Below, piece by piece: positions 4,745-60,669 of a stretch of 64,000 nt of DNA. The notes below the pieces were generated by a model, which worked only from the letters and a program-made list of their open reading frames with translations, was not told the DNA's origin and searched no databases. The stretch is from an uncultured Oscillospiraceae bacterium (GTDB lineage Bacteria > Bacillota > Clostridia > UMGS1883). The stretch covers positions 77,896-141,895 of the forward strand of contig CAYLPQ010000001.1 of the NCBI GenBank assembly GCA_964385605.1. Reading direction: 5' to 3'. Both the position numbers and the translations under genes were made by a program. How positions within the stretch are numbered: position 1 is the first letter of the stretch; the number at the start of each line of letters is the position of its first letter.

Positions 4745-4792
4745 AAAAAACTCCTCCTTATAATTATTGGTTTTATATATTTAACTTTACAA

Positions 4793-5674: not shown

Positions 5675-5685
5675 ATTCTCACCCC

Positions 5686-25279: not shown

Positions 25280-25352
25280 AGACAAGAATACAACACATTT
25301 TTCTTTATTTCCTTAAATTTGTTGTTCAAATAGAATAAAACAAGAAAATATT

Positions 25353-32964: not shown

Positions 32965-32980
32965 ACTTAATCCTCCTGAC

Positions 32981-44235: not shown

Positions 44236-44350
44236 TTTAAAAACCTCCAAATCGTTTTCAATAATACTATTTAATACTAGCAAGAAAACCGCTGTTTTTC
44301 TATACCAATTTCTGTTTTTTGCGGACAAATTCTTTATTTTCACCTTTAAA

Positions 44351-45151
44351 TCATACATCCAGAACCATTCTGTCATAGCAGATAACGGGATTTTTTGTAC
44401 AGCCTTTCATATCTTCAAATGCGGCTTTTTCATCATTGAGGATTGCCCTTCCGTTATGGGAGAAAAGTAATTGTCCGACATTATGGGTATCTGCAAAATC
44501 ACAAACATCCTTAACCTTATGATGACCTGTTTCTGCTATGAGGAAATCGCACCCATTCCCCAACACATTTTCAAGGTCATCCATATCACGTACATCACCG
44601 GAGTAAAGAATTGTTTTTCCGTCAACTGTAATTTTAAAGGAATAGGATTTCGGCTTTTCCCCGGGCAAAAACTTTATATGATGGTTATGAATTGCCTCGA
44701 CTTTAATATTTTCATCTTCATACAAAAGTCCGTCGGTTATTTCATGCTCACAGATTTCAAACCAATCACGATACTGTAAACCTATACCTCGTAACACATC
44801 GTCAAAGCTATTCCATAGTCCCATATCGCCTATATGAAAATCTACCTTTTTTTCAGGTGGATATGTATTGCGGACTGTGGCAAGCTTCCATATTGTATAT
44901 ATTGTGTTAAGCAGACCGCCAAGATGGTCAATATGTGGATGAGAAATAAATATTGCCTTAATCCTCAACAAATCTATCCCCATAAGATGCGCTGTACGGG
45001 AACAGCCCTCCCCTGCGTCAAAAAGATAATAATATCCGTTACTTTCAATCATCATTGATGAGTGATGACATTCAGGCATAGGCTCCGTTCCTGCACACGT
45101 TCCAAGGAAAATAATTTTTGACATATTACTTTTTTGATTCCTCATAGTCAT
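44351..45151 (-). CDS. MBL-fold metallo-hydrolase
   Basis: The FISHPHIDHLGG motif (HxHxDH) and later H and D ligands are present. The start is ambiguous among three in-frame ATGs at 45151, 45145 and 45124. Confidence 0.65.
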   Translation of the reverse strand: MTMRNQKSNMSKIIFLGTCAGTEPMPECHHSSMMIESNGYYYLFDAGEGCSRTAHLMGIDLLRIKAIFISHPHIDHLGGLLNTIYTIWKLATVRNTYPPEKKVDFHIGDMGLWNSFDDVLRGIGLQYRDWFEICEHEITDGLLYEDENIKVEAIHNHHIKFLPGEKPKSYSFKITVDGKTILYSGDVRDMDDLENVLGNGCDFLIAETGHHKVKDVCDFADTHNVGQLLFSHNGRAILNDEKAAFEDMKGCTKNPVICYDRMVLDV

Positions 45152-47996
45152 ACATTATTTCAGGAGAAAATCTGAGTCTCATAGCAAATACTTTTGCAAC
45201 ATCGTTTTCAAATCTGTATGGAGACTCCAGCATTTTGTCAAAAGCCTTCTTCACTATATCAACATAGCTGTTTTCATTATCCACACTTCCGAACAGCAAC
45301 GCATCAAGTATTTCCATACTCGTTTCAGGCTGACTGACACGTCTTTCAACCTCTTTGAACGCGGTAGAATACCAGAATTCCTGAAGCTCCTCATCGTACA
45401 TATCAACAAGCCACTTTGCCATATTAACACAGCACTGACGGATATGTTCATCGCCGGTCATACAGTAAAGCTTTCTCATTGCAGAAGCGAGCACACCGTG
45501 CATAAACGGCTTTCCGCCATAGCAGAACTTACGTTCTGTCACTTCTTTAGGCTGTGGAACAGGCATCATTGTACTTATACAGCCCGTCTTTGCATCCTGC
45601 TTAAAAATTACGCGTTCCGCCATTATGCGGCAGGCATTAAGATAGTATTCATCAAGAGTAATATCATAAGCCGCCTGTAGAGCGAGCATACACCATCCGG
45701 GTTCTCTTTCTGTAAGGAAATCAAATTTTCTTGTATAGTATTTTGCCAAAGTATCAGCACAGTTGAGAACTATAGTTTTATACCTTTCGATACCTGTCAT
45801 CTTATAGTACAATGCAAGTCCGTCATTAAAGATATGACCCATCTGAAATTTAATTTTAGGATAGCTTTTCGGTACAAGCTCGTGAGGATAGTAATTATTT
45901 GCATGACCTACAGTGTGGACAAAGAAATAACCCTTTTCCTCAAAACTCACTCCTGTATGGCTGGTATCAACCTCCGAATAATGAGCCATACCAATACGGG
46001 CAAGGTCATAGAAACGTTCGTCACCCGTTCTCAAATAGTGAATCATCAATCCATAATGGAAATCATATTCAAGATTCATCCAGTGAATATTGTTCTCACC
46101 AAAGCTGTCTCCGTAATTAAGCATACCGTAATCACGGTAGCTTTCTCTATGATTAAGATATAACTGGAGGGAATTATCCATATAAGCATCATATTTGGGA
46201 AAATCGGGACATCCGCATTTAATACGTCCGAAAGCCATGCTTTTTTCAATTGCTTCACAGTCGGGATGGAGAAATGATATATCTGTCAGCTTTTCTGCAT
46301 CTTTTCCAAAAATAACTGTGTGATATTTTCGGAGCCCGCCGTGGAATTCATATTTTCCTGTTTTTAAATAGAAAAACATCTGTGCTTCGAGAAGTACATC
46401 CTCCTTTCTATAATGCTCCGGCTTTGTAATAAAGGGGCAAATTCCGATTTTTACTGAATCTTCTGCTGCAACAAATGATTTAGGGTAATTCTGCCAGAAT
46501 TCTTCAACAATAATTTCTGTATTATCAACAGCAAAACGTCCGTCAATCTTCTGCGCCACTTCTTTTCCGCCTACAACAGCCGTTTTTTCATCAAGCTGCA
46601 TTACATCTATTGAACAGCTATTCTGTGAAGGTCCTTCCAGATACAGCCCGTTAATTGTGTAAAATTCGTTATTCAACAAATCATTTTCAAATCCAAACTC
46701 AAGACGGTACGCATCTATATTCCTGTAAAAGTGCAGGTGGGTATAGCATTTCATACTTCTTTTTCCATCACACATAAAACGGTTAAAACGCGTTATTACA
46801 ATGTGATTTGCACCCTGCTCCTCTACAAAATACTCACCACCGCAAGCAGTATAACGCATATCATCTGCACCATAAAGAACAGCATACAGTTCCTTGTCCG
46901 GAAGTACGGAATTATTTTTGTTGTTGAAATAGTACACTTTTTCTCCGTTTGTAACAGTTATGCCATCTTCACTACAAACAGCAGAAAATTTTTCGAGACT
47001 GACCTGCTTATCACTATCCACTGCATAAAACTTTCTTCCGTCAAGAGGCAAAATTGCGTTGACAGAAACTGTTTTAATACTGTCGTCATTCCATTTGGAA
47101 GTAACTTTGCACTGCGTGAGATAGTTCTCACCGTTTTCGTCGGTAATATGAAGTCCGTCACAGGAATACATTTCTCCGATACCGAAAGGAAGTACACTCA
47201 CAGCAGGATATATACCTTCTTTTTCAGCATCGCATTTAAGTTCGATTTTTACCGGAGAATTACTTCCTTTTTCATAAACTTTTGCTTTACATCTGCCACG
47301 TCCGCAAAGGATATTACCCTCTTCATCCTGAAGCTCAATAACAAATCTCATTCCCCACAATTCCTCGGGAATTGTAAAGCGATGATTATTAAGATATTCT
47401 TCCTCTGTATAAATAGTATCTCCCAGCAATATTCTACCGCGGCAGGCAACCTTGGTCCAGAAGCGAACCTCGCCGTTATCTGTTGTTAAATTCATAATAC
47501 GGTTAAGTTGAGGCTTGGGAGCATCCTTCATAAGCACAATTGCTGTAAAAAGAACGTGTTCACCATCAAGAACCAGATATTTTATTTCATCGCCTTTTTT
47601 AAGCTCTATAGCATCTTCAGTTACAAAGAAATAATACTTTTTATCATCTCTTCCGTAGCGAAATCTTCCTATTCTTTCACCGTTCACACTAAGTTCAACA
47701 AGACATTCGCCAAAGGCACCGCACTCTTCTTCGAGCACAGGAATATACTCTTCATCATAGGTGCCGAAAGTATCTCTCACCTGAAGTGCAAGGTAATATT
47801 TTCCGTCAGCAGGAGCTTTTGCCGAAAGGCTTGCTCCTGCTGAACCAAAATCAAACACATGAGGTACAAAGTAACTTCTTCTCTGCGCATGAAAGCCCTC
47901 ATTATGTAACATATCAGAAGACAAAACAAAATCATTTTCTGAATGAACATATTTTGTTATTTCTGCATCTCCTGAAAGTAATCTGATAAAATTCAT
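45126..47996 (-). CDS. large cytoplasmic protein (956 aa) of unknown function, possibly a carbohydrate-active enzyme
   Basis: There is no signal peptide. It has beta-rich N-terminal two-thirds and a helix-rich C-terminal third. It sits between secreted-enzyme genes and the MBL hydrolase gene. I cannot name a family motif. Confidence 0.4.
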   Translation of the reverse strand: MNFIRLLSGDAEITKYVHSENDFVLSSDMLHNEGFHAQRRSYFVPHVFDFGSAGASLSAKAPADGKYYLALQVRDTFGTYDEEYIPVLEEECGAFGECLVELSVNGERIGRFRYGRDDKKYYFFVTEDAIELKKGDEIKYLVLDGEHVLFTAIVLMKDAPKPQLNRIMNLTTDNGEVRFWTKVACRGRILLGDTIYTEEEYLNNHRFTIPEELWGMRFVIELQDEEGNILCGRGRCKAKVYEKGSNSPVKIELKCDAEKEGIYPAVSVLPFGIGEMYSCDGLHITDENGENYLTQCKVTSKWNDDSIKTVSVNAILPLDGRKFYAVDSDKQVSLEKFSAVCSEDGITVTNGEKVYYFNNKNNSVLPDKELYAVLYGADDMRYTACGGEYFVEEQGANHIVITRFNRFMCDGKRSMKCYTHLHFYRNIDAYRLEFGFENDLLNNEFYTINGLYLEGPSQNSCSIDVMQLDEKTAVVGGKEVAQKIDGRFAVDNTEIIVEEFWQNYPKSFVAAEDSVKIGICPFITKPEHYRKEDVLLEAQMFFYLKTGKYEFHGGLRKYHTVIFGKDAEKLTDISFLHPDCEAIEKSMAFGRIKCGCPDFPKYDAYMDNSLQLYLNHRESYRDYGMLNYGDSFGENNIHWMNLEYDFHYGLMIHYLRTGDERFYDLARIGMAHYSEVDTSHTGVSFEEKGYFFVHTVGHANNYYPHELVPKSYPKIKFQMGHIFNDGLALYYKMTGIERYKTIVLNCADTLAKYYTRKFDFLTEREPGWCMLALQAAYDITLDEYYLNACRIMAERVIFKQDAKTGCISTMMPVPQPKEVTERKFCYGGKPFMHGVLASAMRKLYCMTGDEHIRQCCVNMAKWLVDMYDEELQEFWYSTAFKEVERRVSQPETSMEILDALLFGSVDNENSYVDIVKKAFDKMLESPYRFENDVAKVFAMRLRFSPEIMYDYEESKK

Positions 47997-48018: not shown

Positions 48019-51000
48019 TTAATACTGTGAAATATTAAATCCGCGGCCTATTCCGTCAGCCACTTTTGCACCATTTTTGTTATACCAGAAATAGAGAACA
48101 ACTGTGCCGCCTTCGTTTGTAATTGTTCCTATGTCAGTTGTTCCGTCGCCATCCATATCGCAAGTAAATTTCTGCTGACCCGTCTGATATGATTTCATAC
48201 TGGTTGAGTCATAACCTCTTACGGGTGCAAGGGGTTTTACTCTAACTTTAAATTCACCGTCAACCAGAACATTATCTGTAGGCATAAAAATGTAATCAGT
48301 GCTACCCTCACCTGTCCAGTTAATGATATTAAACTGTCTGTTACGGATATAACTGTTTGCGACATTGAGGACTTCTCCGTCAAGTGATAAGTACATAAGC
48401 TGTGATGCCGGCTGTCCCATAGCATTGTCACCGGTAATAATCTGGAATGGATTATCGTCAATACCGAGATTTGCTTTTTCCACAGTTTCATAATGCACTG
48501 CATCATCAAGTGCCCATACTCTGTCACCGTTACCGTCAATCATAATTATGTTACTTCCGCCGCCACAGGGAGACATACAGAAGCGCTGGTCTTCTTTGGG
48601 AATACCCTTATTCGGGAAAGCCTTCAATGTTCCCTCTAGTTTTTCAGTAAGAAGTGCCTTATCTTCAGCATCTATTTTGCCGTCGCCCGTTGTATCTCCG
48701 GCAGTAAACTGATTTCCTGTAAGGGTTACCTCTCCGCTAATATGCTTGTTAAGCAAATCAAGGTCTTTATCATTAATAATTAAATCACCCGTTGTGTCAC
48801 CTGTAAGAACAAAATTAACCACTTCAAGTGAATCCTTATGTCCGCGGCTTATATAACCGGGATAGTCATCCTCTTTCATTGACCAGAGTACACTTCCGTC
48901 ATCATCTATGCAAGCATATCCTACGATAACTTCATCGTGACCGTCATTATCAATATCTATAGGCTGTGGATAATGACCAACCTTTAATCCTTCCGGCATA
49001 CAGGTGTACCAGATAGGCTTCCAGTCTTTGGTATATGCCCATACTTCTGTATAACGGGTTTTTACCATAATATCACTGGGATAGCCGTTGCCCGAAATAT
49101 CAGCAAAGATTATGGTATCACTTGCCCAACTTCCTGCTGTATATTCAGACATTGGCATTTTATAACGATTTTTCACTTCACCGGTAGCAGCATTGAATAT
49201 GTAAAGATATTCGCTTGTAGCTGCAACAACCTCAAGCTGACCGTCATTTTCCAGGTCGTGCACCTGACAAGGCAAGTCACTACCAAGAGCTTTTGAACCT
49301 TTAGCAGGGTCTCCCCATTTCCAGAGGATGGTACCGTCTGCTTCCTGTACAGCTATACTTGCACAATCGTGATTTCCCGAGAAAAGGGGATCATCGTAAA
49401 TACGTGCAGAAATGTACTCAAGCTCACCGTCGTTATCAACATCGTTTACACAAACCCATCGGCTCTGATAATCCGGATCAAGCTCAACACGCAAATCCGG
49501 TTCTACATATTCAATATTCTCCGGCGCACCTCCGGGGGCAAACACCTGAAACTCTGAAAGAGCTGCTGTTCCCTGCAATTCAGTCACGGTAAATCGTACA
49601 CTTGTTACAGTCTTTGCATCAAAAGTAACATCACTGGGATAACCAGTATTTCGTATATCTTTCACTTGTATTTCTGAACCGTCGCTGAAAGTAAGAACTC
49701 CAGCTTTTATCCAGTTATCATATTTCGCTGAATCGTGAAGAATAATACGGTTTATTGTCTGCGGTTCATTCCATGAAAGCTCAACCCACTTTTCCGCTTC
49801 ATCACCGCTGTGCCATTCACCGATACCACCGAATTCTGCAATTATATTATCATTAATTCCCTGTTTGTCATATTCTGCAGACTTTTCGCCGGATACATTG
49901 ACATCTGCATAGAAAGCGAGATTATCTACGGGAGTACGGCGCTTGAGAATAACTCGAAATTCAGAAAGCTGTGCATAGGTAGTATTTCCCATTGCATCGA
50001 TTGCATCGTAAATAGTTATTCTGACATTTGTTGAACGTGCAGGAGCAAAGCTCAAAATCTGCTCGCCACTATAGAACTTGTCGGTTCTATCCTGTACAGT
50101 TTCGTAAACTGTACCACCGCTTCTGTCCACATCTACTGTATATTTAAGAGAAACTCCGTCAGGAATCTTAAGGTATGCACCCTCAACCTCGCTTTCACGC
50201 ACAAGGTCTATATTACAGAACTGCGTAAAGGTGTAAAGCGAAGGAGCATCATAGTAGTCTACATCGATTTTACCGCCGGTAGCCTTTCCTATCGACCATC
50301 CGGTGGGTTTTGTTGTGCCGGCTTCATACTCTTCAAAATTCTGCTGTGTTACAACTTCTTCAAAGCTTTGAAGAGGAGAAGAATACGAAACCTTGATATT
50401 ATCTAGGTAAAAACCGCCTGTAGTACGCGTACTCATGTGATAGCGAAGCTGTCTGACATCATCACAACGTTCTCTGAAAGATGCCTCCGCCAGACAAAGC
50501 TTACCATCTACGTATGTATCATAAGTCTGTGAATCTGTGTTTATTACAATTTTAATATTGTACCATGTATCTGCAGAAACGTCTCTGTAAACGGTTCCTC
50601 CACCGCCGGCAAGTTTAAACACACCGCCTGACTGAATAAGTGAAACTGCCGTATTGCCGTTTGAGCTGTAAATATACGGAAGTGCTTTCTCATCTGAAAC
50701 ATCTGTTACAAGCACGTCCTGTTCAACAACTACAATACCTTTACACGGTTCAAAATTATACTGCATAGCAAGAGTAGTGTTTCCTATTTCAGGCTTCAAA
50801 AGACGAAGACTCTTTCCGTTATCTACAGGAGTAAGCGGAGGTGCAGCCTGCCACTTTGTAGAATCCTCTCCGTCTACTAAATTACTCGCCGGAAACTCCT
50901 CTGTCTCGGTAGAGAATGTAACCTTGCTGCCAGTATAAATTCCCGGAACATATTCCTCATCTGGAGCTTTATAGTTATCAAGATAAGGGACACGCGAACT

Positions 51001-51714
51001 ATAATATACTTCACGCGGATCACTTTCCACAGAAGATCCGCCGGTACTTATTGATGCACCGCTGCCTGTATTTGATATTTTTATCCCGGTAAGTATCTCC
51101 CCTGAATTTATAAGCATACTGTCAAGGAGAAGTTTTGCATTTTTTCCCGTTACACTATACTGAACACTGTTTGCAGAGCTTTTCGTGCTGTAATTCAGTG
51201 TTCCTCCGATTTTAATACCATTAAGCATAACTTCGTAGCTTGCAGCCTGCAGATTTGCATTTATCTCTACATTATACCAGGTTCTTTCCACATAACCCGA
51301 AAGCTTCACCCAGCCGTTGTTGCTCATAGCTTTAATCTGTCTGTTACTGAATGTGACTGTAAACAAAGTTTTTCCGTCGGACATAACACGTATCTGTGCT
51401 TCTTTTCCGTCGTAAAAACAAATTTTTTGTCTTAAAACCAACACACTGTCTGTAGAGCTATCAAAATTAACACGCGCAACTGCCATATCTCCTGTATCAT
51501 TAGTAAGGCTAATGCCCTTACTGTCAGCTCCGTTTGCCATTTTTACCGTGCTTCCGTAAAATGTTTCGAATTTTTCCAATTGACTTTCCGATTGTGAATC
51601 AAAATTCAATTCCATATAAAGTGGCTCTTTATCCTCCGCCTGTACAGGAATAATTCCAATACAGAGCATAAGAATCATTGCCAGTATTTTTTTCATTGCG
51701 CATCCTCCTTTCAA
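48019..51714 (-). CDS. secreted multi-domain protein (1231 aa): LamG-like N-terminus, F5/8-type-C/CBM32-like domain, FG-GAP/beta-propeller region (PL11 rhamnogalacturonan-lyase-like), dockerin-like Ca-binding pair
   Basis: A signal peptide (MKKILAMILMLCIGIIPVQA) follows MKGGCA. FG-GAP-like repeats are DVDNDGELE, DLENDGQLE and DIDNDGHDE. The dockerin-like pair is GDTTGDLIINDKDLDLLNKHISG...AGDTTGDGKIDAEDKALLTEKLEG, coded around 48625..48810. Confidence 0.55.
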   Translation of the reverse strand: MKGGCAMKKILAMILMLCIGIIPVQAEDKEPLYMELNFDSQSESQLEKFETFYGSTVKMANGADSKGISLTNDTGDMAVARVNFDSSTDSVLVLRQKICFYDGKEAQIRVMSDGKTLFTVTFSNRQIKAMSNNGWVKLSGYVERTWYNVEINANLQAASYEVMLNGIKIGGTLNYSTKSSANSVQYSVTGKNAKLLLDSMLINSGEILTGIKISNTGSGASISTGGSSVESDPREVYYSSRVPYLDNYKAPDEEYVPGIYTGSKVTFSTETEEFPASNLVDGEDSTKWQAAPPLTPVDNGKSLRLLKPEIGNTTLAMQYNFEPCKGIVVVEQDVLVTDVSDEKALPYIYSSNGNTAVSLIQSGGVFKLAGGGGTVYRDVSADTWYNIKIVINTDSQTYDTYVDGKLCLAEASFRERCDDVRQLRYHMSTRTTGGFYLDNIKVSYSSPLQSFEEVVTQQNFEEYEAGTTKPTGWSIGKATGGKIDVDYYDAPSLYTFTQFCNIDLVRESEVEGAYLKIPDGVSLKYTVDVDRSGGTVYETVQDRTDKFYSGEQILSFAPARSTNVRITIYDAIDAMGNTTYAQLSEFRVILKRRTPVDNLAFYADVNVSGEKSAEYDKQGINDNIIAEFGGIGEWHSGDEAEKWVELSWNEPQTINRIILHDSAKYDNWIKAGVLTFSDGSEIQVKDIRNTGYPSDVTFDAKTVTSVRFTVTELQGTAALSEFQVFAPGGAPENIEYVEPDLRVELDPDYQSRWVCVNDVDNDGELEYISARIYDDPLFSGNHDCASIAVQEADGTILWKWGDPAKGSKALGSDLPCQVHDLENDGQLEVVAATSEYLYIFNAATGEVKNRYKMPMSEYTAGSWASDTIIFADISGNGYPSDIMVKTRYTEVWAYTKDWKPIWYTCMPEGLKVGHYPQPIDIDNDGHDEVIVGYACIDDDGSVLWSMKEDDYPGYISRGHKDSLEVVNFVLTGDTTGDLIINDKDLDLLNKHISGEVTLTGNQFTAGDTTGDGKIDAEDKALLTEKLEGTLKAFPNKGIPKEDQRFCMSPCGGGSNIIMIDGNGDRVWALDDAVHYETVEKANLGIDDNPFQIITGDNAMGQPASQLMYLSLDGEVLNVANSYIRNRQFNIINWTGEGSTDYIFMPTDNVLVDGEFKVRVKPLAPVRGYDSTSMKSYQTGQQKFTCDMDGDGTTDIGTITNEGGTVVLYFWYNKNGAKVADGIGRGFNISQY

Positions 51715-54390
51715 TTACTCTTCTATAACAAATATTTCACGAATATAGTGATAGCGATAGTTAAGAACCATAAGTGTACCATCGGGCAGGCTTTGCGGGC
51801 TTCCGGTGGATGGAATCAAAATAGATTCATCTGCCGATTCAAATTTTCTTGTTTCGTCTGAATATTTATAAACGATACTACCATTCAGATATGCCGCCCA
51901 CGGACGTTCTTGCCCTACATATACACTTACTGCAGAGCCGTTCTTTCGCCACAATCTACCAGTCTGGCTCCAGATTGTGGGGAATCTTCCGCTTCCTTTT
52001 ATTACTGTTCGTTCAGTTAATGTCAAACCTTTACTTGGTGAATATATTACATAATCAGAATGGATTTTCAGTTCACCTTTAAGAGTCTTCTGGCACTGAA
52101 CAATACTTCCCGGTTCAGGAACCGAACCATCAAGCGAAGTATAAACAAATTCTTCTTCAACACCGCGAAGAAAACCTTTTACCATAGGCTGAAATTCTCC
52201 ATCCTTGTCCTTGCCCATATAAACACTGTTAATTGCAAGGAAATATGAGTCAAGCACTTCTACATCACTGTCTGCAGAGGCATCGGGCATATACAGAAGA
52301 ACGGATGCAGTATATGTATCATCGCAATCAAACACCTGCATATTGGCATAATCGTCATTATTCTCAAATATAGAAGCATCAACTATCTGCATATCATCTT
52401 CTACAACTTCGCCGTTATTACATGGAAGGTAGAAAACCTTTGTTGTTCCGGAAAGATGGAACACATGATTATATGAAGATTCATGAACAAAGCTTGATGT
52501 TGAGTTCTGGAAATTATAGGTTTCTGATGTGGTTATCGCATCGAAATCCATAGAAAATTTATCAAGATTATATCCTAATGCTGTAGCATTTGTATATTTA
52601 TCTATAGCAGTAACAACACCTTCATCATTAACACTGTAGCATATCATCTGCGGAATGAAATAACCTGCTTCATCATAAAACAGGTTCATTACATCTGCAG
52701 TTTTATAAGTTTTTAATTCATATACATCAGAAGAAAATTTAATCTTATCTGCAATGTCAAATATCTGAACTTTTCCTTTATGGTCAAACAGCTTTATCTC
52801 ATATTGTTTGGAAAGTGTTCCCTTTGTTGCAGCATCTATAGCATATGCATATGCGTTTTCTTCACTGCTCACTTTATATACTGCAGCAATTTCTCCTATA
52901 ACGTCAAAATAAAATTCTGATCTTAACCCTGATTTCATTGGTGTAAAACCTGTGTTTTCAGGAAGGCTCATATATTGCTCTGAAACGGCATATTCATAGC
53001 CGTTAATCAGCACATAGGTGTTATCATCTTCAACAATTGCTTCCACTGTACCGCCAACACCGCTACGGGTTGGTATAATCGTTACAAGGGAACCGTCCTT
53101 TGAACGTGCTACACTGAGAACATCCCAGTTAGAGAGCTTAAGAAGCTGTTCCCAGCCACCCCATATGCCGTCATTACCGAGAACTCTATATGTAACGTTG
53201 TTGTTCTTATCCCTGCGAAGTGTTTTTTTATAGTGACAATTTATGACATCTTCTGCAACACTTTCGCAAACGTAGTTTTCATAATTCCAAATAAAACAAA
53301 CGTCATAAACATCATCATCGTTATGGTCTATAAGCTTTACATAACCGGTAGGAAAATCAAGGTCATCAATATCAAAGTCGAGATCGTAAACATCGTTATA
53401 CATAAAACGATGTTCTTTTGAAAGATCTGCTGTTTGTGTTTTCCCTGTCTGAGTTTTATAACAGAACTTTCTCAATGAAAATTCCGGAGAATCAGTATTT
53501 AAGTCACCTATTTTTATCATAAGTTCATTATTATCTGATGTAGGAAATGCGTATAACAGCTTTTCAGCATCTGCATTCCCATCGGTAGCATAAGCTTCAA
53601 CCATATAACCAAGAAGCGAAGGAACATATGTATCGGAATAGTTCAAAACAGTGCTTCCGATTTTAACACTTCCCTCGGCAGTATCTTTGTTTCGTGAAAG
53701 CATACTTCTGCCATCTACACTGTTTACAACAGCTTCAAATTTACGGATTCCCATATATTTACCGAGAATAGTGCTACGGGTTTTTGTGTTGTAACCAGCC
53801 TTATTAGTCACAGAAGTAAGTTCAACAAGCTCTACATCAAGGCAATTGTATACCATCTGGGCAAGCTCGGCTCTGCTTACAAAATTACCCTGATTATAAT
53901 TTACATTTTCCAAAATATCGAGCTTACTTGCGCATATAGCATAGCCCAAGGGGTATCCACCGTTTTTCTCTGCCTGAACTTCATATCCGAGAATATATAA
54001 CAAGCATTTCACTGCCTGCTCATATGTCACATAGGTATTGGGCATAAAATTACCGTTTTCGTCACCAACCATAATTTTTTGAGAATGTACTGTTGCAATC
54101 TGATGATAATACACGTGACCTTCATTAACATCTGCAAATTCAGGCTTTTGTGCAGTCTGCATATCGTGCATATTCATAAGCTTACAAATAATTGAAGCAA
54201 ATTCTCCTCTTGTAATTTGAGATGCATCAGAATCGTTGTTTGAAAATGCATCCATTATTCCCAAAGCTTTTACAACCTGCAAATGGTCTGTATTGACAGA
54301 TAGCTGTACAATGCTTTCTGCGGATGCCGGAGTCGCAGATATAAGCAGCAATATACACAAAACAATTGCTAAAACTTTACGCATATTCAA
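51715..54390 (-). CDS. cell-surface protein with N-terminal SLH domains and a large beta-rich C-terminal region (891 aa)
   Basis: The signal peptide is MNMRKVLAIVLCILLLISATPASA. The SLH-like repeats are ITRGEFASIICKLMN..., FADVNEGHVYYHQIATVHSQKIMVGDENGNFMPNTYVTYEQAVKCLLYILGY and YAICASKLDILENVNYNQGNFVSRAELAQMVYNCL. Confidence 0.6.
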   Translation of the reverse strand: MNMRKVLAIVLCILLLISATPASAESIVQLSVNTDHLQVVKALGIMDAFSNNDSDASQITRGEFASIICKLMNMHDMQTAQKPEFADVNEGHVYYHQIATVHSQKIMVGDENGNFMPNTYVTYEQAVKCLLYILGYEVQAEKNGGYPLGYAICASKLDILENVNYNQGNFVSRAELAQMVYNCLDVELVELTSVTNKAGYNTKTRSTILGKYMGIRKFEAVVNSVDGRSMLSRNKDTAEGSVKIGSTVLNYSDTYVPSLLGYMVEAYATDGNADAEKLLYAFPTSDNNELMIKIGDLNTDSPEFSLRKFCYKTQTGKTQTADLSKEHRFMYNDVYDLDFDIDDLDFPTGYVKLIDHNDDDVYDVCFIWNYENYVCESVAEDVINCHYKKTLRRDKNNNVTYRVLGNDGIWGGWEQLLKLSNWDVLSVARSKDGSLVTIIPTRSGVGGTVEAIVEDDNTYVLINGYEYAVSEQYMSLPENTGFTPMKSGLRSEFYFDVIGEIAAVYKVSSEENAYAYAIDAATKGTLSKQYEIKLFDHKGKVQIFDIADKIKFSSDVYELKTYKTADVMNLFYDEAGYFIPQMICYSVNDEGVVTAIDKYTNATALGYNLDKFSMDFDAITTSETYNFQNSTSSFVHESSYNHVFHLSGTTKVFYLPCNNGEVVEDDMQIVDASIFENNDDYANMQVFDCDDTYTASVLLYMPDASADSDVEVLDSYFLAINSVYMGKDKDGEFQPMVKGFLRGVEEEFVYTSLDGSVPEPGSIVQCQKTLKGELKIHSDYVIYSPSKGLTLTERTVIKGSGRFPTIWSQTGRLWRKNGSAVSVYVGQERPWAAYLNGSIVYKYSDETRKFESADESILIPSTGSPQSLPDGTLMVLNYRYHYIREIFVIEE

Positions 54391-54397
54391 ACCTCCT

Positions 54398-56875
54398 TTA
54401 TTTCTGTGCTAATTCACCAAATAATCCGTAAAGCAGTTTTGCAGCTTCCGCTCTGCTTGTATGATTCTTTGGACGGATTGTATTATCTTCATATCCTGAA
54501 AGTATTCCCCTGGAACCGAGGCAGTTAATGGCATCCTTTGCATAATCTGAAACATCGCTGTAATCTGCAAATGATGCTACTTCAACAGCGCCCTCTGTTT
54601 CAAGCGCGCGGTAAATAATAACTGCAAGCTGTTCTCTGGTAATATAATCGTATGGCATGAATTTTCCATCTGTTCCCTGTATGATTCCATAGGACGCCGC
54701 TTTTTTTACTTCGTCGTTGAACCAATCATTATCTTTTACATCAACAAAAGCTATGGCATTTTCATTTTCCTGTTCAGGAAGCATACGACCAAGCATTACA
54801 ACGAACTCGGCACGGGTAAGTGTTCCCTCCGGACGGAAGGTATTATCCTCAAATCCTGTAATAATACCAGCTTCACAAAGTGCAGAAATTGCTTCCTCTG
54901 CCCAGTGTCCGCTTATATCTGTAAGATTATTTGTTATCTGTGTTTCCGGAGTCTGAACAACCGGTTCAATTTCGGGAGCAAGTTCCTGATTATCTTCTTT
55001 TTTATAAGCAGAGCCACCACCGCCGCCTCCGCCGGATGAGCCGCCACCGCCTGATGAACCACTTCCTGATGTAAAGTCATCCTCTTCAAGTTCAGGAGGA
55101 GTCTGGGGGTTCTCCGGAAGGTTTAAAACAGCAGTATTCCAATCTGCACGTATATCTTCAACTTTCGTATAGGATTTATTATACAGTGCCGGATACAATG
55201 AATCTGCATTTTCAGCAGTAACTGATGTAAGGTCCAGACCAAATACATCATCGTTAAACTTTTCTACAATTTCCTCAATACCGCTTCTTTCAGCCGCATT
55301 AATACTTGTCATAGCCATAGAATAGCGAAGTGCACCCTGAATTTTTTCATCTGAAATAAGAAGATTTTCGTTGTCAGTCCGTTTTGTTTCGAAATGAGAG
55401 AAGAACTCTTCTTTATTTTCATTAAACACGGCATTCTCTGCGTATTCAGTAATGTAACCGCCCTTTTCCAAAACTGCAAATACCTCTTCTGATGTTTGCG
55501 CATTCTTAAGCTCAAGATAACTCTTTGCTTTCAGAAAATCTGACTGTACCTCCGGAATTGAAGTGTAATCCACACTGCTGTTTTTGAAATATGCAGTTAT
55601 AAAAGCAAGATTATCAAGAGCTTTTTGTGTGAGTACATCATTTTCTTCAGGAAGAAGCAAACCAATTTCTTCTTCAGTCAGGAAACACGGAAGATAATAC
55701 TTAATCAAGTTCTGTGCTTCTTCATCTGCTTCCGGCAAATCTGAAAAGTCACCGGGAAGCGCTTCAAGTTGCTGCGTAGTAGCAACATATATTTTTTGTT
55801 GTTTACCACTACCCTTAATTTCTCCACCGATATAACGTTGTATATCTGCATAATACCAGCCGGGTTCTACATTTACTTCTTCTGAAAATTCAAATGTCGC
55901 TGCAGGATCATCTGTTTTTACGGCAACTGTCTGTGAAAGCTGTGTTATATCAGAATCATCCTCTGCGTTAATGAGAGAAAGGCTGTAACTCTGCTCAAGA
56001 AACACCGAATCCGTACCGTTAGAAACAACAATCCTTGGAGTTGCTTCAGCATAATTCATTGCTGCTTCAAAATTCATAGTAAGTTCAGCAGGATCATATG
56101 AAACAATACTCTTACCTCTGACAACTATATCGTCAAAATAAATTACTTCATCAAGAGGATTTCCTGTATCAAAGCGATACTGATACATTCTTACACTTTC
56201 AACAGCTTTACCTGCAGTATATCCTATTCCGCCTGTACCTATTTCCGTAAAAGTATATGTACCTACAAGTTCATTATTAAGATATACATAGAAGTTTGAC
56301 AGGTCCTTATCGGTTGTTCCGTCAACATCCACTCTGTGCATAATCATTTTTATTTTATTGAAGCTTTCTTCGGTAAAGTTTTCACCGTCATCTTCAGCAT
56401 TTTTTGGAAGATGATAAAGAGCATCTGTTCCGATTACTTCCTCACTTCCTACTTTAACTCTGTATCTGTTCAGGTCTCCGTTGTCACAACTGATTTTTAC
56501 ATTAAGACGTGCATTGCTTGCCCCCTGCATAAGCTGAACATATGCTTCTGCCCTTTCCCCGCCTGTCTCTCTGGGAAGAACTTTGAATTCAAGCTCCACT
56601 ATGTCCTGACTGACAGCGGTGTCAAGAACTATCTTTTCTGTATTATCAACTGCGCCATCCGTTCTATATAACGAGAAAGCTTTGTCTTCTGTATCACTGA
56701 TTTCAACGATAGCATTTTGAGATGATTCAGGAGTATAACTCTCAAAATCCTGATTGAATGTAATTTGTGTTATCTGTGCAGTTTCTGTTATTGCAGTTTC
56801 TTCAGCCATAGTAACCGGTATAACAGTCATTAACATTACAACTGCAAGTATAAATGATATACCTTTCTTTTTCAT
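54398..56875 (-). CDS. cell-surface protein with a Gly/Ser linker and three C-terminal SLH domains (~825 aa)
   Basis: The internal ATG at 56873-56875 (MKKKGISFILAVVMLMTVIPVTMA signal peptide) is preceded by AGGAGG. The linker is SGSGSSGGGGSSGGGGGGGS. The C-terminal SLH repeats are WAEEAISALCEAGIITGFEDNTFRPEGTLTRAEFVVML, WFNDEVKKAASYGIIQGTDGKFMPYDYITREQLAVIIYRAL and AKDAINCLGSRGILSGYEDNTIRPKNHTSRAEAAKLL. Confidence 0.7.
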   Translation of the reverse strand: MKKKGISFILAVVMLMTVIPVTMAEETAITETAQITQITFNQDFESYTPESSQNAIVEISDTEDKAFSLYRTDGAVDNTEKIVLDTAVSQDIVELEFKVLPRETGGERAEAYVQLMQGASNARLNVKISCDNGDLNRYRVKVGSEEVIGTDALYHLPKNAEDDGENFTEESFNKIKMIMHRVDVDGTTDKDLSNFYVYLNNELVGTYTFTEIGTGGIGYTAGKAVESVRMYQYRFDTGNPLDEVIYFDDIVVRGKSIVSYDPAELTMNFEAAMNYAEATPRIVVSNGTDSVFLEQSYSLSLINAEDDSDITQLSQTVAVKTDDPAATFEFSEEVNVEPGWYYADIQRYIGGEIKGSGKQQKIYVATTQQLEALPGDFSDLPEADEEAQNLIKYYLPCFLTEEEIGLLLPEENDVLTQKALDNLAFITAYFKNSSVDYTSIPEVQSDFLKAKSYLELKNAQTSEEVFAVLEKGGYITEYAENAVFNENKEEFFSHFETKRTDNENLLISDEKIQGALRYSMAMTSINAAERSGIEEIVEKFNDDVFGLDLTSVTAENADSLYPALYNKSYTKVEDIRADWNTAVLNLPENPQTPPELEEDDFTSGSGSSGGGGSSGGGGGGGSAYKKEDNQELAPEIEPVVQTPETQITNNLTDISGHWAEEAISALCEAGIITGFEDNTFRPEGTLTRAEFVVMLGRMLPEQENENAIAFVDVKDNDWFNDEVKKAASYGIIQGTDGKFMPYDYITREQLAVIIYRALETEGAVEVASFADYSDVSDYAKDAINCLGSRGILSGYEDNTIRPKNHTSRAEAAKLLYGLFGELAQK

Positions 56876-56909: not shown

Positions 56910-58397
56910 TTACATCCTTGCAAATTTTGACGGGGATATATTTTCATGCTTCAGGAAAATTCTTCTGAATGTTCTTGAATTTTTAAATCCCGATTTTTCA
57001 GATAACTCCTCTATCGTTATTTCAGGATTGGCGATTATCATTCTTTTTGCTTCGTCAACTCGGACTTTGTTTATATAATCGAGAAGTTTAATATCTGTGT
57101 TTCGTTTGAACATATTTGAAAGATATGCAGGATTTATATAAAACCTTGCAGCAATCGCATTGACGTTCATATCAGCATCAGCATAATTTTCCCGTACATA
57201 TTGTTTTATCTTTTCGCAGAACGGCGAAGCTACACCTTTATTATTTTCTGCAATACACTCACATACTTCTTTCAGATATTCTTTCAGAATATGTTCCATC
57301 TCAATAACGGAATCTGTAAAGAAAATATCATTAAGCTTTTTACTGCAACCAAGGCTTATTCCGTTTTCTTTTTCAGTTTCACCAATAGCTTTCAGAATTG
57401 TTCCTGCTATTTCAAACATAAAGCATCGGATTATGTATATGGGATAGCTTCGCTGATAGAGAATTTCATCAAGTGCATTTCTTATCAGTCCATAGGCACG
57501 GGCAAAATCGCCTTTTTTAATATAGATGATAATACTGATTTCAGTGTCTATTGAGTAGTTATAAACATCATAGTCGCGTTTGGCGATTTTTTCCGCATCA
57601 ATTATACATCCGTCTTTCTGACTTAAAAATGCTGCATCCTTCACTTCACGGTAAACATCAGAAATCTCATCCTTATTTTCTGTAATGCGGCCATATATAA
57701 CATCAGCATCAATATTCAAATCAGATTTTAATGAATTAATAAACTTTCTGGATATTTTTTCAATATCATCTTTTAAGCTATCAGAAGAAGCTTTAAAAAC
57801 TGCTATCATCCATAAAGCACCGCCGGTCTGATTTTCTGCAAAATGAATATTTGCTATTTCTGAAAACAAATCTTTTGCAATCTCTTTGACACCGGTTTTC
57901 TTAATTTCTGAAAAGCTTTCTTTGCTGTAGGCAACAAACAGTATGCTGTACGCACCGTTAAATTGCGGCAGTAAATTGCTAACCTCATCATCCATAGGTT
58001 TTCCTTCCAACAATTCCGTTACAGCCCTTATTCTGAATTGTTGCTCCATGGTTTCTACTTTATGCACAAGCTCATTTCTTTCACACAAAAGGTCCGAGAG
58101 ACAGTTTTCAAGTTTGTCGGTCATTGCTTTTTTCTGTATATGCTCTCTGCCCGATGAAATTTTTAAAATTTCTGAAAGTCTCTTAATCTGTTTATGTTTT
58201 TGTATCAACATCGACAACAACACTGTAAAACCTAATGCCGCTATCAAAAAGATAATCATTTTCACAGCAGCACTTTCAAAACCGAAATAGATACCTGCCA
58301 TACTGCAAAAAGCCAAAACAAGCAAAACAACTATATGGATATATTCATTTTTCCCCGAACTTCTTTTATTCTTTTTCATATTTTTCCCTTTCAACAC
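56910..58397 (-). CDS. membrane-anchored AraC-family transcriptional regulator (495 aa)
   Basis: N-terminal TM helices are IVVLLVLAFCSMAGIYFGF and MIIFLIAALGFTVLLSMLI. The C-terminal HTH_AraC is AARFYINPAYLSNMFKRNTDIKLLDYINKVRVDEAKRMIIANPEITIEELSEKSGFKNSRTFRRIFLK. Its 3' end overlaps the 5' end of the track ORF 54398..56947; this is resolved if that gene starts at 56875. Confidence 0.8.
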   Translation of the reverse strand: MLKGKNMKKNKRSSGKNEYIHIVVLLVLAFCSMAGIYFGFESAAVKMIIFLIAALGFTVLLSMLIQKHKQIKRLSEILKISSGREHIQKKAMTDKLENCLSDLLCERNELVHKVETMEQQFRIRAVTELLEGKPMDDEVSNLLPQFNGAYSILFVAYSKESFSEIKKTGVKEIAKDLFSEIANIHFAENQTGGALWMIAVFKASSDSLKDDIEKISRKFINSLKSDLNIDADVIYGRITENKDEISDVYREVKDAAFLSQKDGCIIDAEKIAKRDYDVYNYSIDTEISIIIYIKKGDFARAYGLIRNALDEILYQRSYPIYIIRCFMFEIAGTILKAIGETEKENGISLGCSKKLNDIFFTDSVIEMEHILKEYLKEVCECIAENNKGVASPFCEKIKQYVRENYADADMNVNAIAARFYINPAYLSNMFKRNTDIKLLDYINKVRVDEAKRMIIANPEITIEELSEKSGFKNSRTFRRIFLKHENISPSKFARM

Positions 58398-58509: not shown

Positions 58510-60669
58510 TTACCCAATTTCTTTTACTATCTCACTGTCTCCATTTAAAATAATGTCGCCGAGAAGCATCAGAAGGACACCGGTTCCGTGATTATCATCT
58601 TTAACTGTTCCCAATCTCAAGTAGTAAGAAACATCCATCGAACAGCTTGAACCCATACAAACATTATAAAAAATGCCTTCTTTATCTACGCATTTTGCGA
58701 GCAATGCTTTTAGTCCACGTTTCACATTTGCTAAATACTTCTTATCAATCCAGCCGTTCTTTACCCCGCGGTACATAGCCAGAGTAAACATAGCTGTACA
58801 GGAAGCTTCCTGATAACTTTCATCTTTATCAAGCACCTGATGCCACATACCTTCATCATCCTGGAAGCTTTCCAATCCTTCGCAAAATTCAGAAAAAGCG
58901 GAGCGCAACACTTCAAACTTATCCCCTTTTTCATCATTTACAGTAAGTAATATTTCGCTTAAAGAAAGAGCTATCCAACCATTGCCGCGACCCCAGGGGA
59001 TACAGTTTTTCAGGCCGGTATCGAGGAAGAATATATGAGAAAAAATCTTTTTTTCTTCCATATAAAGTCTCTTTTTAAATCCGCGAATCTGTGTAATGAT
59101 TTCGTCAAGACACTCGGTTTTACCAAATTCCTTATACAATCTTATCAAAAACGGACATGACATAAAGAAATCATCTGCCCACATTGTTTTGCTTTCTTTT
59201 CTGCAGAAAGTGTCGTCATCAAAACGGGAAATTTTTGTTTTTACATTATCATAAAGCTTGTCAATCAATTCGAGATACTTCTTGTCACCGGTGGTTTTAT
59301 ATGCTTCTATGAAATTTACTCCCATTGTTCCGTTATAATCAAGCAATCCTTCCGATGATGCTCCGCTCATAAAATTGGAAAAATTATACTCGGCAAAATC
59401 GTATCTTGCATAATCATACCAGTCTGCCAGGAAAGACATGTTCTCAATAAAGTACTCCGGGTATGCTCTTTCGCCAAGAGCATTTCCTGCATACTGCATA
59501 CCATACATACAAAGCATTGTCGCATAGTACCAATGACCAAAAAAGCTTGAATCAATACAAGCTCTCAATCTTGCATTCTGAAATCTCCAGAAAACGGTTT
59601 CTCCCTTTTCATTAACAAAAGGTGTAATCCTTTTATCATCAATCTCTACAATTGCATCTGTGTAAAAAGGACCGCAGTACATAAAAAGAAATTCTTCTTT
59701 TCTGTCAGTTTCCAGCATGGGAAGTCCAATGCCTTTACAGTCTTTTATCCGGAAGCCCCAACCGGCAACCTGTTTCCTTGATTTTAACAGAATTTTGTCA
59801 TTTTTCTTAATTTCTATCAGCTTTTCGTCACCTGATGACAGCTTGCAAAGCTCATTGTTGTTCATATAGACATCTGTATCAGAAGTCGCGGAAATCATAA
59901 TATAACCGTCGTTTTCAGCAAAAGTATATGCTACTGCATATTCACCTTCCTGATACATAGCAGAAAAGTCTATCAAGTCTTTTTCCTTTACAACTTTCGG
60001 AAAATTATATACAGGCTTATCTTCAAAATCACATTTGGAATGATACGCATCTTCCAAAGATGCAAAACCGGTATAAAGCGGTGAAACAGCAAGTCCTTCT
60101 TCCTTATTCAACCCTTCCACAGGAAGATTCATACGCACCATAACCAAGTAGAAATTAGCCCAAAGGCTTGCACAGCTCGGTGGCGAAATATTAAGCCAGA
60201 AGCCGTCATTTATATCATTGAAAACATATTTAATTACAAGATTGTTTTTACCGCCTTTTTTCAGGAAAACGGGCAACGAAACATACTTTTTACTTTCTGC
60301 ACAGTTTTTTGCGTCTTCAAAAGAAGAAAACAGACATTTCCCGTCAAGAAATACCGAAACAAGACCTGTAACATTTATCCACACAGTATAATCTTTTTCA
60401 ATAGATATATTGCCTGAAACATAGGCTACGTCACCGGCTTTACTTTCAGGATAGATTTTTTTCATATCAAAATAAATATCGTGCTTACGTTTTTTACCGT
60501 AGGAAATTTCCTCCATATATATGTAAGGATTCCACATCGGACTTTTTACAGGTCTGGTTTCAAGCAGATGCGAAAGCACCGTAGTTGCTATATCCTTACA
60601 GGAAACTGCGGTTTTTAAGATTGTATCCTCCGCATTCATTTTAACATTTACAACATCACTTTTATGCAT
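58510..60669 (-). CDS. GH88/GH105-like unsaturated uronyl hydrolase domain with a ~330-aa N-terminal extension (paralog of 23186..25279)
   Basis: The motif IPWGRGNGWIALSLSEILL is in the C-terminal half. The N-terminal region aligns with the paralog (KAGDVAYVSGNI vs NKGDYAYISTYL). The RBS is GGAGGT. A TATAAT lies 8 nt upstream of the RBS with a poor -35, which suggests activator dependence. Confidence 0.65.
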   Translation of the reverse strand: MHKSDVVNVKMNAEDTILKTAVSCKDIATTVLSHLLETRPVKSPMWNPYIYMEEISYGKKRKHDIYFDMKKIYPESKAGDVAYVSGNISIEKDYTVWINVTGLVSVFLDGKCLFSSFEDAKNCAESKKYVSLPVFLKKGGKNNLVIKYVFNDINDGFWLNISPPSCASLWANFYLVMVRMNLPVEGLNKEEGLAVSPLYTGFASLEDAYHSKCDFEDKPVYNFPKVVKEKDLIDFSAMYQEGEYAVAYTFAENDGYIMISATSDTDVYMNNNELCKLSSGDEKLIEIKKNDKILLKSRKQVAGWGFRIKDCKGIGLPMLETDRKEEFLFMYCGPFYTDAIVEIDDKRITPFVNEKGETVFWRFQNARLRACIDSSFFGHWYYATMLCMYGMQYAGNALGERAYPEYFIENMSFLADWYDYARYDFAEYNFSNFMSGASSEGLLDYNGTMGVNFIEAYKTTGDKKYLELIDKLYDNVKTKISRFDDDTFCRKESKTMWADDFFMSCPFLIRLYKEFGKTECLDEIITQIRGFKKRLYMEEKKIFSHIFFLDTGLKNCIPWGRGNGWIALSLSEILLTVNDEKGDKFEVLRSAFSEFCEGLESFQDDEGMWHQVLDKDESYQEASCTAMFTLAMYRGVKNGWIDKKYLANVKRGLKALLAKCVDKEGIFYNVCMGSSCSMDVSYYLRLGTVKDDNHGTGVLLMLLGDIILNGDSEIVKEIG

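Follow-up and report, generated by a model that had tools for sequence, protein, structure and literature searches.

Surface anchoring of glycan-processing proteins through S-layer homology (SLH) domains is already well known, both from the SLH-anchored glycoside hydrolases (GHs) and carbohydrate-binding module (CBM) proteins of Paenibacillus, Caldicellulosiruptor, and Thermoanaerobacterium and from the anchoring scaffoldins of the Acetivibrio thermocellus cellulosome (SdbA, OlpB, and Orf2p). SLH-bearing pectinolytic enzymes have reportedly been found in Monoglobus pectinilyticus as well. Here, we describe two adjacent genes in a 64,000-nucleotide stretch of contig CAYLPQ010000001.1 from an uncultured Oscillospiraceae bacterium (hereafter, the window). 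Both encode SLH proteins: one has its SLH triplet at the C terminus (the C-SLH protein, 825 aa; 54398..56875, minus strand), and the other has it at the N terminus (the N-SLH protein, 889 aa; 51715..54384, minus strand). What appears to be new is a conserved pair of genes from two SLH protein families that contain no catalytic or cohesin modules and that recur together across glycan loci. The non-SLH families of both proteins are undescribed, and our literature search found no description of the C-SLH/N-SLH pair. We give roughly even chances to the interpretation that the pair is a noncatalytic, substrate-induced, SLH-anchored surface module for glycan capture in a Gram-positive polysaccharide utilization locus (PUL).

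Several described systems resemble this locus in part. The anchoring scaffoldins, too, are secreted and combine a C-terminal SLH triplet with a flexible linker. The locus also resembles them, and ClcC/ClcD of Cellulosilyticum lentocellum, a characterized minimal pair of adjacent cohesin and dockerin genes (PMC13487519), in that the SLH protein is encoded beside other SLH genes and beside a dockerin-bearing enzyme that lacks an anchor of its own. However, no cohesin was detected here, the N-terminal modules are instead concanavalin A (ConA)-like, immunoglobulin (Ig)-like, and helical and unannotated, the dockerin is internal to a beta-propeller, and the pair is also found in loci free of dockerins. 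The N-SLH protein has the architecture and acidic isoelectric point (pI) of S-layer proteins such as Sap and EA1 of Bacillus anthracis, SbsB of Geobacillus stearothermophilus, and SpaA of Paenibacillus alvei, and some members of its family are likewise stand-alone genes in housekeeping neighborhoods. On the other hand, its beta domains match neither the sequence nor the fold of the Sap or SbsB assembly domains, and the copies in the window are duplicated, lie in regulated enzyme operons, and always come with a C-SLH partner gene.

The SusD/E/F-type surface glycan-binding proteins of Bacteroidota are comparable in another respect: they are noncatalytic surface proteins encoded in a locus with a regulator, a transporter, and enzymes, their paralogs within a genome each belong to a different locus, and a lectin- or CBM-like module is shared with enzymes of the locus. 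In contrast to those proteins, with which there is no homology, the proteins described here would be anchored to a wall polymer through SLH domains rather than by a lipid or a sortase, and their glycan binding is predicted. Finally, SLH-anchored enzymes show that SLH triplets hold glycan-processing proteins at the wall of Gram-positive polysaccharide degraders, but these proteins are themselves catalytic, whereas the conserved module described here consists of two genes for SLH proteins that both lack a recognizable catalytic domain.

Conservation of the gene pair

Gene context was compared across 20 distinct loci encoding members of the N-SLH family (a narrower alignment yielded seven genome loci and one metagenome locus). 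A gene for a C-terminal-SLH protein is located immediately upstream of the N-SLH family gene, on the same strand, in 14 of the 20, and these paired loci cover at least six lineages with less than 30% N-SLH identity. In most loci, 7 to 30 nt separate the two genes; they abut or overlap by a few bases in L015 and L021. The partner proteins are recognizable by a Gly-rich run ahead of the SLH triplet, which is present in 10 of the 11 that were checked. Paired loci are surrounded by genes for AraC regulators, ABC transporters, and large secreted enzymes, including GH5, GH88, HepII_C lyases, and CBM-bearing proteins. Both proteins of the pair introduced above have signal peptides and are predicted to be secreted, each contains a complete SLH fold, and neither has a recognizable catalytic domain.

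The remaining six loci (L004, L016, L017, L019, L020, and L022) have no such pair. Stand-alone N-SLH genes are found among housekeeping genes in L016 (FtsH), L019 (DivIVA and ClpP), L020 (ProRS/rpoB), and L022 (secE-nusG-L11-L1). In L017 the gene belongs to a glycan locus with no C-SLH partner, and in L004, beside spoIIGA-sigE-sigG, its neighbor is a divergently transcribed gene for another N-terminal-SLH protein.

Two cassettes in one region

The window contains a second copy of the module with the genes in identical order: a C-SLH gene (605 aa; 32981..34798, minus strand) and an N-SLH gene (929 aa; 30175..32964, minus strand). We refer to this copy as cassette 1 and to the pair introduced above as cassette 2. 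The N-SLH proteins of the two cassettes are paralogs with 25% identity over 728 aa (BLASTP, E = 7e-40). The BLASTP similarity of the C-SLH proteins is confined to the SLH triplet, and profiles were therefore built for groups of partner proteins from related loci after the Gly linker and SLH triplet had been trimmed. The trimmed cassette-2 profile matched the cassette-1 C-SLH protein in hmmsearch, and hhalign aligned the two groups over 286 columns spanning the Ig-like domain and the helical module (probability 96.4%, E = 1.2e-9), with 0.1% for the reversed-sequence control. The helical tail alone (the last ~85 residues) gave 95.3%. The Ig-like domain of the cassette-2 protein aligned with the N-terminal Ig-like domain of the cassette-1 protein inside the longer match; alone it reached a probability of only 55%. 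When the same non-SLH groups were compared with the N-SLH family, only signal peptides aligned.

The cassette-1 C-SLH protein consists of an Ig-like domain, a helical module, a Gly/Ser run (GGSSSGGGGSSGGGGSSSGGSS, aa 371-392), and an SLH triplet; it has no ConA-like domain. Thus, its architecture is that of the cassette-2 protein minus the N-terminal ConA-like domain. A preliminary description of this DNA had proposed that the two-gene architecture recurs at 30175..34798 and that the duplication reflects a functional unit rather than chance. Both proposals hold. In pairwise alignment, the similarity within each pair of proteins exceeds that of unrelated SLH proteins, as the BLASTP and hhalign results show, and the unit is further supported by the synteny and by the conserved link to an enzyme described below.

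Two cassettes per genome, each in a different enzyme context, are present here and in the metagenome-assembled genome (MAG) JAZQAO01. Kinship of the large proteins encoded upstream and downstream of the two cassettes was also considered and rejected, as BLASTP found no similarity. Abutting the cassette-1 C-SLH gene without a gap is an open reading frame (ORF) of 966 aa with a signal peptide (34799..37699). An apparent SLH-like stretch in this protein was confirmed by neither Pfam nor jackhmmer, and the protein has no NCBIfam match. Neither it nor the ORFs at 21012..23129 (705 aa) and 12245..14326 (693 aa) has a Pfam match at E <= 0.01.

The C-SLH protein

The AlphaFold2 (AF2) model of the cassette-2 C-SLH protein, with a mean predicted local distance difference test (pLDDT) score of 77.8, contains a signal helix followed by ConA-like and Ig-like domains, a helical module, a disordered tether, and the SLH triplet. 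The first domain (aa 31-260; 56096..56785; this and all other cassette-2 features are on the minus strand) is modeled as a curved beta-sandwich jelly-roll of the ConA-like lectin/glucanase superfamily. Foldseek matched it in the PDB with probability 1.0 to TtX122B, the PL7-type alginate lyase Aly36B, galectin-8, calreticulin, legume lectins, and GH16 enzymes, at target TM-scores (TMt) of only 0.4 to 0.56. Pfam did not detect it in either the whole 825-aa protein or the domain pieces; its ortholog P0099, from locus L002, has faint matches to Laminin_G_3 and Toxin_R_bind_N. A hidden Markov model (HMM) of the domain also weakly matched a module within the dockerin-bearing enzyme encoded downstream (aa 364-446; independent E value [iE], 1.5e-6), as would be expected of a substrate-binding module shared within a locus.

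A 433-aa Big_4 protein (43075..44376) also contains a module with weak similarity to the ConA-like domain (iE = 3.6e-4), as do its homologs in L008 and L002, which suggests that a single binding module is distributed among several proteins encoded in the locus. In the second clade of loci with a dockerin-bearing enzyme, an additional 677-aa ConA-like protein without SLH domains is encoded immediately upstream of the C-SLH gene (L013:5204-7237 and L010:5906-7939).

The Ig-like beta-sandwich (aa 262-364; 55784..56092) was delimited by DSSP on the AF2 model and is followed by the helical module (aa 367-584; 55124..55777), which was recognized from its modeled helices. The preliminary description had placed a helical region at the N terminus of this protein. 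The N-terminal third is instead made of beta structure, namely the ConA-like and Ig-like domains, and the helices are central. The C-terminal part of the helical module has a conserved motif, A-(M/V)-T-S-(I/V)-N-x-A-x-R-S-x-I-x-x-I-V-x-x-Y...GL (alignment A4), and neither this module nor any other non-SLH part of the protein has a Pfam, NCBIfam, or PDB sequence match. In P0099 (L002:6023-9985, 1,313 aa), the unit of ConA-like, Ig-like, and helical domains is tandemly duplicated ahead of a single linker and SLH triplet; BLASTP aligned its segments 7-586 and 560-1137.

The rest of the protein agrees with the initial account of a Gly/Ser run and three C-terminal SLH domains. The disordered tether (aa 589-648; 54932..55111) has pLDDT values of 23 to 41 and contains the run SGSGSSGGGGSSGGGGGGGS (aa 603-622; 55010..55069), located by a regular expression. 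In the C-terminal triplet (aa 650-825; 54401..54928), Pfam finds three SLH stretches (5.9e-35), and the Foldseek matches include the SLH domains of Sap (3pyw and 6bt4; TMt 0.78-0.79) and SpaA (TMt up to 0.83).

The N-SLH protein and its family

In the AF2 model of the N-SLH protein (mean pLDDT 84.4), the SLH triplet is followed by six small all-beta domains, which correspond to the large beta-rich region that had been recognized in the preliminary description. Residue numbers for this protein refer to an 891-aa version that begins at a TTG codon (54390). The triplet (aa ~33-188; 53827..54294) is evident from Foldseek and jackhmmer: the former matches the SLH domains of SpaA and Sap in the PDB with probability 1.0 and TMt 0.64-0.80 over whole triplets, and the latter recovers three units where Pfam finds a single SLH stretch (aa 85-126, 2.8e-4). 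In both the C-SLH and N-SLH proteins, the three repeats fold as one pseudo-trimeric domain, as is typical of the SLH family (PF00395). A TRxE-type Arg is conserved in units 1 and 3 of the N-SLH triplet; R61 is invariant in alignments A1 and A2, and R173 in A2 only. No match to PS_pyruv_trans (csaB-type pyruvyltransferase) was found within the window.

Beyond the triplet, four small beta-barrel domains, D1-D4 (aa 189-605; 52576..53826), make up a conserved core that was delimited by DSSP and a family census; they are followed by two distal domains, D5-D6 (aa 606-891; 51718..52575), which the same census identified as clade specific. Among 261 family members, segments D1-D4 match 124 to 196 proteins, D5 matches 53, and D6 matches 33. 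With the single exception of P0198, the D6 matches (32 of 33) are proteins from loci with the dockerin-bearing enzyme, relatives with at least 28% identity to them, or a fragment. A loop in D2 (aa ~349-366; 53293..53346) reads G-x-V-x-L-I-D-x-D-x-D-x-x-Y-D-V-V, which resembles the calcium-binding DxDxDG motif of FG-GAP type and is conserved in most of 44 aligned family members; it may be a structural calcium site.

The beta region has no informative structural relatives. Foldseek against the PDB aligned it just to DDB1, over whole chains and at a TM of 0.08 that carries no meaning, and weakly to a HIN/oligonucleotide-binding (OB) fold, a library of viral structures gave SLH matches and weak S1 and LEF-3 OB-type matches, and the family profile matched only SLH-containing chains in the PDB (Sap, SbsB, SpaA, and SlpA). 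The family itself is large. The protein has ~95 homologs in a word-index search, and with its SLH triplet removed it matches 1,521 representatives of clusters at 50% identity with E <= 1e-3 and 814 with E <= 1e-10. Nearly all of them are 850 to 900 aa long, with the matched region beginning near residue 200. The members that were sampled come from MAGs and metagenomes only, and the best name found among them is "S-layer homology domain-containing protein."

The dockerin-bearing enzyme and the search for a cohesin

Directly downstream of the N-SLH gene is a gene for a secreted beta-propeller enzyme (1,225 aa; 48019..51696), so that the cassette does adjoin a dockerin-like enzyme, as had been noted. 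Pfam detects DUF7402/F5_F8_type_C, FG-GAP, weak RGL11 and carrageenase-propeller matches, and Dockerin_1, and the protein combines ConA-like/CBM modules with an FG-GAP beta-propeller; it has no SLH domain and no wall anchor. Type I dockerins comprise two ~22-residue repeats, in each of which a helix comes after an F-hand calcium loop (D-x-[DNT]-x-D-x-x-[IVL]-x-x-x-D). The insertion at aa 972-1026 (1231-aa numbering; 48637..48801) has two such loop/helix repeats, DTTGDLIINDKD and DTTGDGKIDAED, which are 34 residues apart. Its Dockerin_1 score of 26.7 bits is above the Pfam gathering score of 22.9, and the sole PDB sequence match of the enzyme is the dockerin of Clostridium thermocellum XynY/Xyn10B; the dockerin chains matched are 2ccl_B (E = 1.4e-3), 1ohz_B, and 6kg9_A. 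It is thus a type I dockerin (PF00404), atypical in being inserted within the propeller rather than forming a terminal module.

The order C-SLH, N-SLH, enzyme is kept in eight loci: the window, L002, L006, L008, L009, L010, L012, and L013. In the four more distant of these trios, identity falls to 28-30% for the N-SLH protein and to 35-38% for the enzyme. The two-loop dockerin insertion is retained in all eight enzymes encoded directly after the N-SLH gene. Additional paralogs of the enzyme are encoded further downstream in some loci, and two of the three lack exactly the 66-residue dockerin module (L010:16776-21374 and L013:16333-20940), whereas the third (L012:8705-13609) retains it. Because it is cleanly absent or present among these copies, the dockerin behaves as a discrete module within the propeller that can be gained or lost. 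The SLH proteins vary with the enzyme: the ConA-like domain is present in the C-SLH partner in all eight trio loci and absent from the partners in cassette 1, L007, L015, and L018; both this domain and N-SLH domains D5-D6 co-vary with the dockerin-bearing enzyme. The flanks of the six other paired loci, cassette 1 among them, contain no ORF with a dockerin-type double loop.

The known receptor of dockerins is the cohesin (PF00963), a nine-stranded jelly-roll module of ~140 aa, and a noncanonical cohesin-like function had been suggested for the SLH proteins. Pfam detected no cohesin in either whole SLH protein at E <= 0.01, in nine sub-domain pieces of the two proteins at E <= 10, or in 36 scanned ORFs of at least 150 aa in the window. 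No cohesin chain was found in PDB sequence and profile searches with both proteins, and none is among the 50 Foldseek-PDB matches listed for either model. On these searches, we reject a cohesin recognizable by sequence in either protein; with six paired loci also lacking a dockerin neighbor, the suggestion of a cohesin-like function is not supported.

Gene organization and locus context

The whole cassette-2 region is encoded on the minus strand in the order AraC regulator, C-SLH, N-SLH, 1,225-aa enzyme, 956-aa protein. The regulator (495 aa; 56910..58397), with Pfam matches to HTH_18 (4.3e-16) and HTH_AraC, is the first gene of this co-directional block. The junctions between regulator and C-SLH gene, C-SLH and N-SLH genes, and N-SLH gene and enzyme gene are 34, 13, and 18 nt long, with AGGAGG ~7 nt before the ATG at each, which is compatible with one transcription unit; a scan for consensus promoters and terminators performed at chance level and was uninformative. 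The longest C-SLH ORF extends to 56947. The start with an AGGAGG site is the ATG at 56875, which is also where the gene was called to begin in an independent assembly of this locus. For the N-SLH gene, the ATG at 54384, with AGGAGG 7 nt upstream, is the likely true start and agrees with the database protein P0001.

The N-terminal region of the AraC regulator is membrane-like, with weak SpoIIGA-like and DUF5935 matches, and its HTH is at the C-terminal end; from these matches, it could be a membrane-embedded sensor-regulator. AraC proteins in related loci are 730 to 742 aa long, and one has a dCache domain. L008 and L009 also have an ortholog of the regulator ahead of the cassette. In L002, an orthologous locus, the regulator is upstream of an ABC transporter, and both are directly upstream of the C-SLH gene. 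At the other end of the block, the 956-aa protein (45126..47996), which has a weak PcRGLX-like toroid match, is a conserved neighbor of the trio: homologs with 66 to 83% identity are encoded directly after the enzyme gene in L002, L008, and L009, and in L006, L010, and L013 homologs with ~31-33% identity are encoded on the upstream side of the C-SLH gene, separated from it by other genes.

The window as a whole is a large glycan-utilization region. Its enzymes include two GH88-type unsaturated uronyl hydrolases, GH43, GH4, heparinase II/III-like, and PcRGLX-like proteins, and it also encodes a PIG-L deacetylase, M20 deacylases, GFO/IDH/MocA oxidoreductases, three AraC regulators, and an ABC sugar transporter (3185..6642). 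Gram-positive PULs are said to have been defined, for Roseburia and Eubacterium, by the co-location of one or more degradative enzymes with a carbohydrate transporter and a transcriptional regulator, and the window has all three. The GH88-type hydrolases (58510..60669 and 23186..25285) have an unannotated N-terminal extension of ~370 residues, with the Pfam match starting at aa 367-379. The genome is 38.6% GC, and the nearest genomes are fecal MAGs labeled "Clostridia bacterium."

Proposed role of the pair and rival explanations

The C-SLH and N-SLH proteins probably act together at the cell surface, and the locus probably targets a glycan containing uronic acid. Starting from a surface-anchored pair of proteins, we infer that the pair captures glycan and that the two partners touch each other through the helical module. 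In this proposal, the substrate would induce the locus, and both SLH proteins would be exported and bind pyruvylated secondary cell-wall polymer noncovalently, each via its own SLH triplet. The N-SLH protein, as a relative of putative primary wall or S-layer proteins, would serve as a stalk or as an S-layer-like platform whose variable tip gives specificity for the locus, and the tethered C-SLH protein would reach outward and capture polysaccharide; its helical module would be the most likely contact with the N-SLH partner. The co-transcribed enzyme, being unanchored, would then cleave the polysaccharide at the wall, beside the ABC importer.

Several points weigh against glycan capture by a pair acting together. 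Six family loci are unpaired, at least four of them with the N-SLH gene standing alone among housekeeping genes, so the N-SLH fold is independent of the partner. Solo members do cluster apart from paired ones in a neighbor-joining tree, but the tree is rough and has no bootstrap. In addition, the C-SLH protein may have a catalytic role, since some lyases and hydrolases (PL7-type and GH16) share the ConA-like fold.

That two unrelated SLH proteins merely happen to be adjacent in an SLH-rich genome is hardly credible. SLH proteins are numerous in such genomes, and the C-SLH proteins of the two cassettes are similar to each other by BLASTP only in the triplet; yet their homology outside the SLH domains is found at the profile level, SLH scans detected very few other SLH-bearing ORFs in the flanks, and the pair spans at least six deep lineages with short same-strand gaps, abutting, or overlapping genes. 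The synteny data effectively refute chance adjacency. Alternatively, the N-SLH family could provide the lattice proteins of the lineage, with the glycan-locus copies as alternative subunits that remodel the S-layer upon induction and with the C-SLH protein associated with the S-layer, its Gly/Ser tether passing through the lattice. This would suit the Sap/EA1/SbsB-like architecture (a signal peptide and an N-terminal SLH triplet ahead of ~700 aa of beta domains, with acidic pI) and the apparently monocistronic solo members, which have long upstream gaps in L020 (~375 nt) and L022 (~2.5 kb), contain 0 or 1 Cys in L004, L020, and L022, and form the separate cluster in the rough tree. Indeed, the solo members in L019, L020, L022, L016, and L004 look like candidate primary S-layer proteins of uncultured Clostridia. 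We nevertheless find this lattice explanation quite improbable: no match to a known S-layer assembly domain was obtained with the beta region, at least two paired paralogs per genome are located inside AraC-regulated enzyme operons, and the paired copies are Cys-rich, with 7 to 13 residues in the clade of this cassette.

A third explanation is that one of the SLH proteins binds the internal dockerin of the enzyme through a domain not recognizable as a cohesin, which would make the trio a minimal, cohesin-independent, cellulosome-like tether for a single enzyme; the N-SLH protein offers its clade-specific D5-D6 tip as a candidate receptor, and the C-SLH protein its ConA-like domain. The enzyme is secreted without an anchor, its dockerin passes the Pfam gathering score and matches PDB dockerins, and the dockerin is kept in every directly downstream enzyme but cleanly deleted from two of three extra paralogs. 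Moreover, D6 and the ConA-like domain are essentially confined to trio loci and co-vary with the enzyme, and in C. lentocellum adjacent cohesin and dockerin genes work as a minimal system (PMC13487519). However, domains that bind the substrate of the enzyme would be expected to co-vary with it in the same way, and every cohesin search reported above was negative. Dockerin binding is not the general function of the pair, because six other paired loci have no dockerin-bearing neighbor. Dockerin-like modules without cohesin partners are also reportedly widespread (Peer et al. 2009), which counts against a receptor here. On this evidence, we regard a dockerin receptor as rather unlikely, and prefer glycan capture by the SLH-anchored pair.

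Implications

Much less is understood about how Gram-positive gut bacteria retain polysaccharides and enzymes at the cell surface than about the Sus-like systems of Bacteroidota. In its most far-reaching form, which we consider a long shot, the two-gene SLH module, made up of an N-SLH stalk with a locus-specific tip and a tethered, lectin-like C-SLH protein, would mark PULs in a lineage of uncultured gut Clostridia as SusC/SusD do in Bacteroidota, and in the clade of this cassette one of its clade-specific domains (N-SLH D5-D6 or the ConA-like domain) would be a new, non-cohesin receptor for the internal dockerin in a cohesin-independent, single-enzyme, wall-anchored "mini-cellulosome" for a noncellulosic glycan. 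If the dockerin of the enzyme does dock on an SLH protein, such a receptor would bear on the "orphan" dockerins of noncellulosomal organisms. With the pair, two sizeable protein families that are annotated only as "SLH domain-containing" would gain a definition, one of them comprising more than 800 clusters at 50% identity, and a recurrent SLH gene pair would serve as a genomic marker of glycan loci in uncultured Clostridia.

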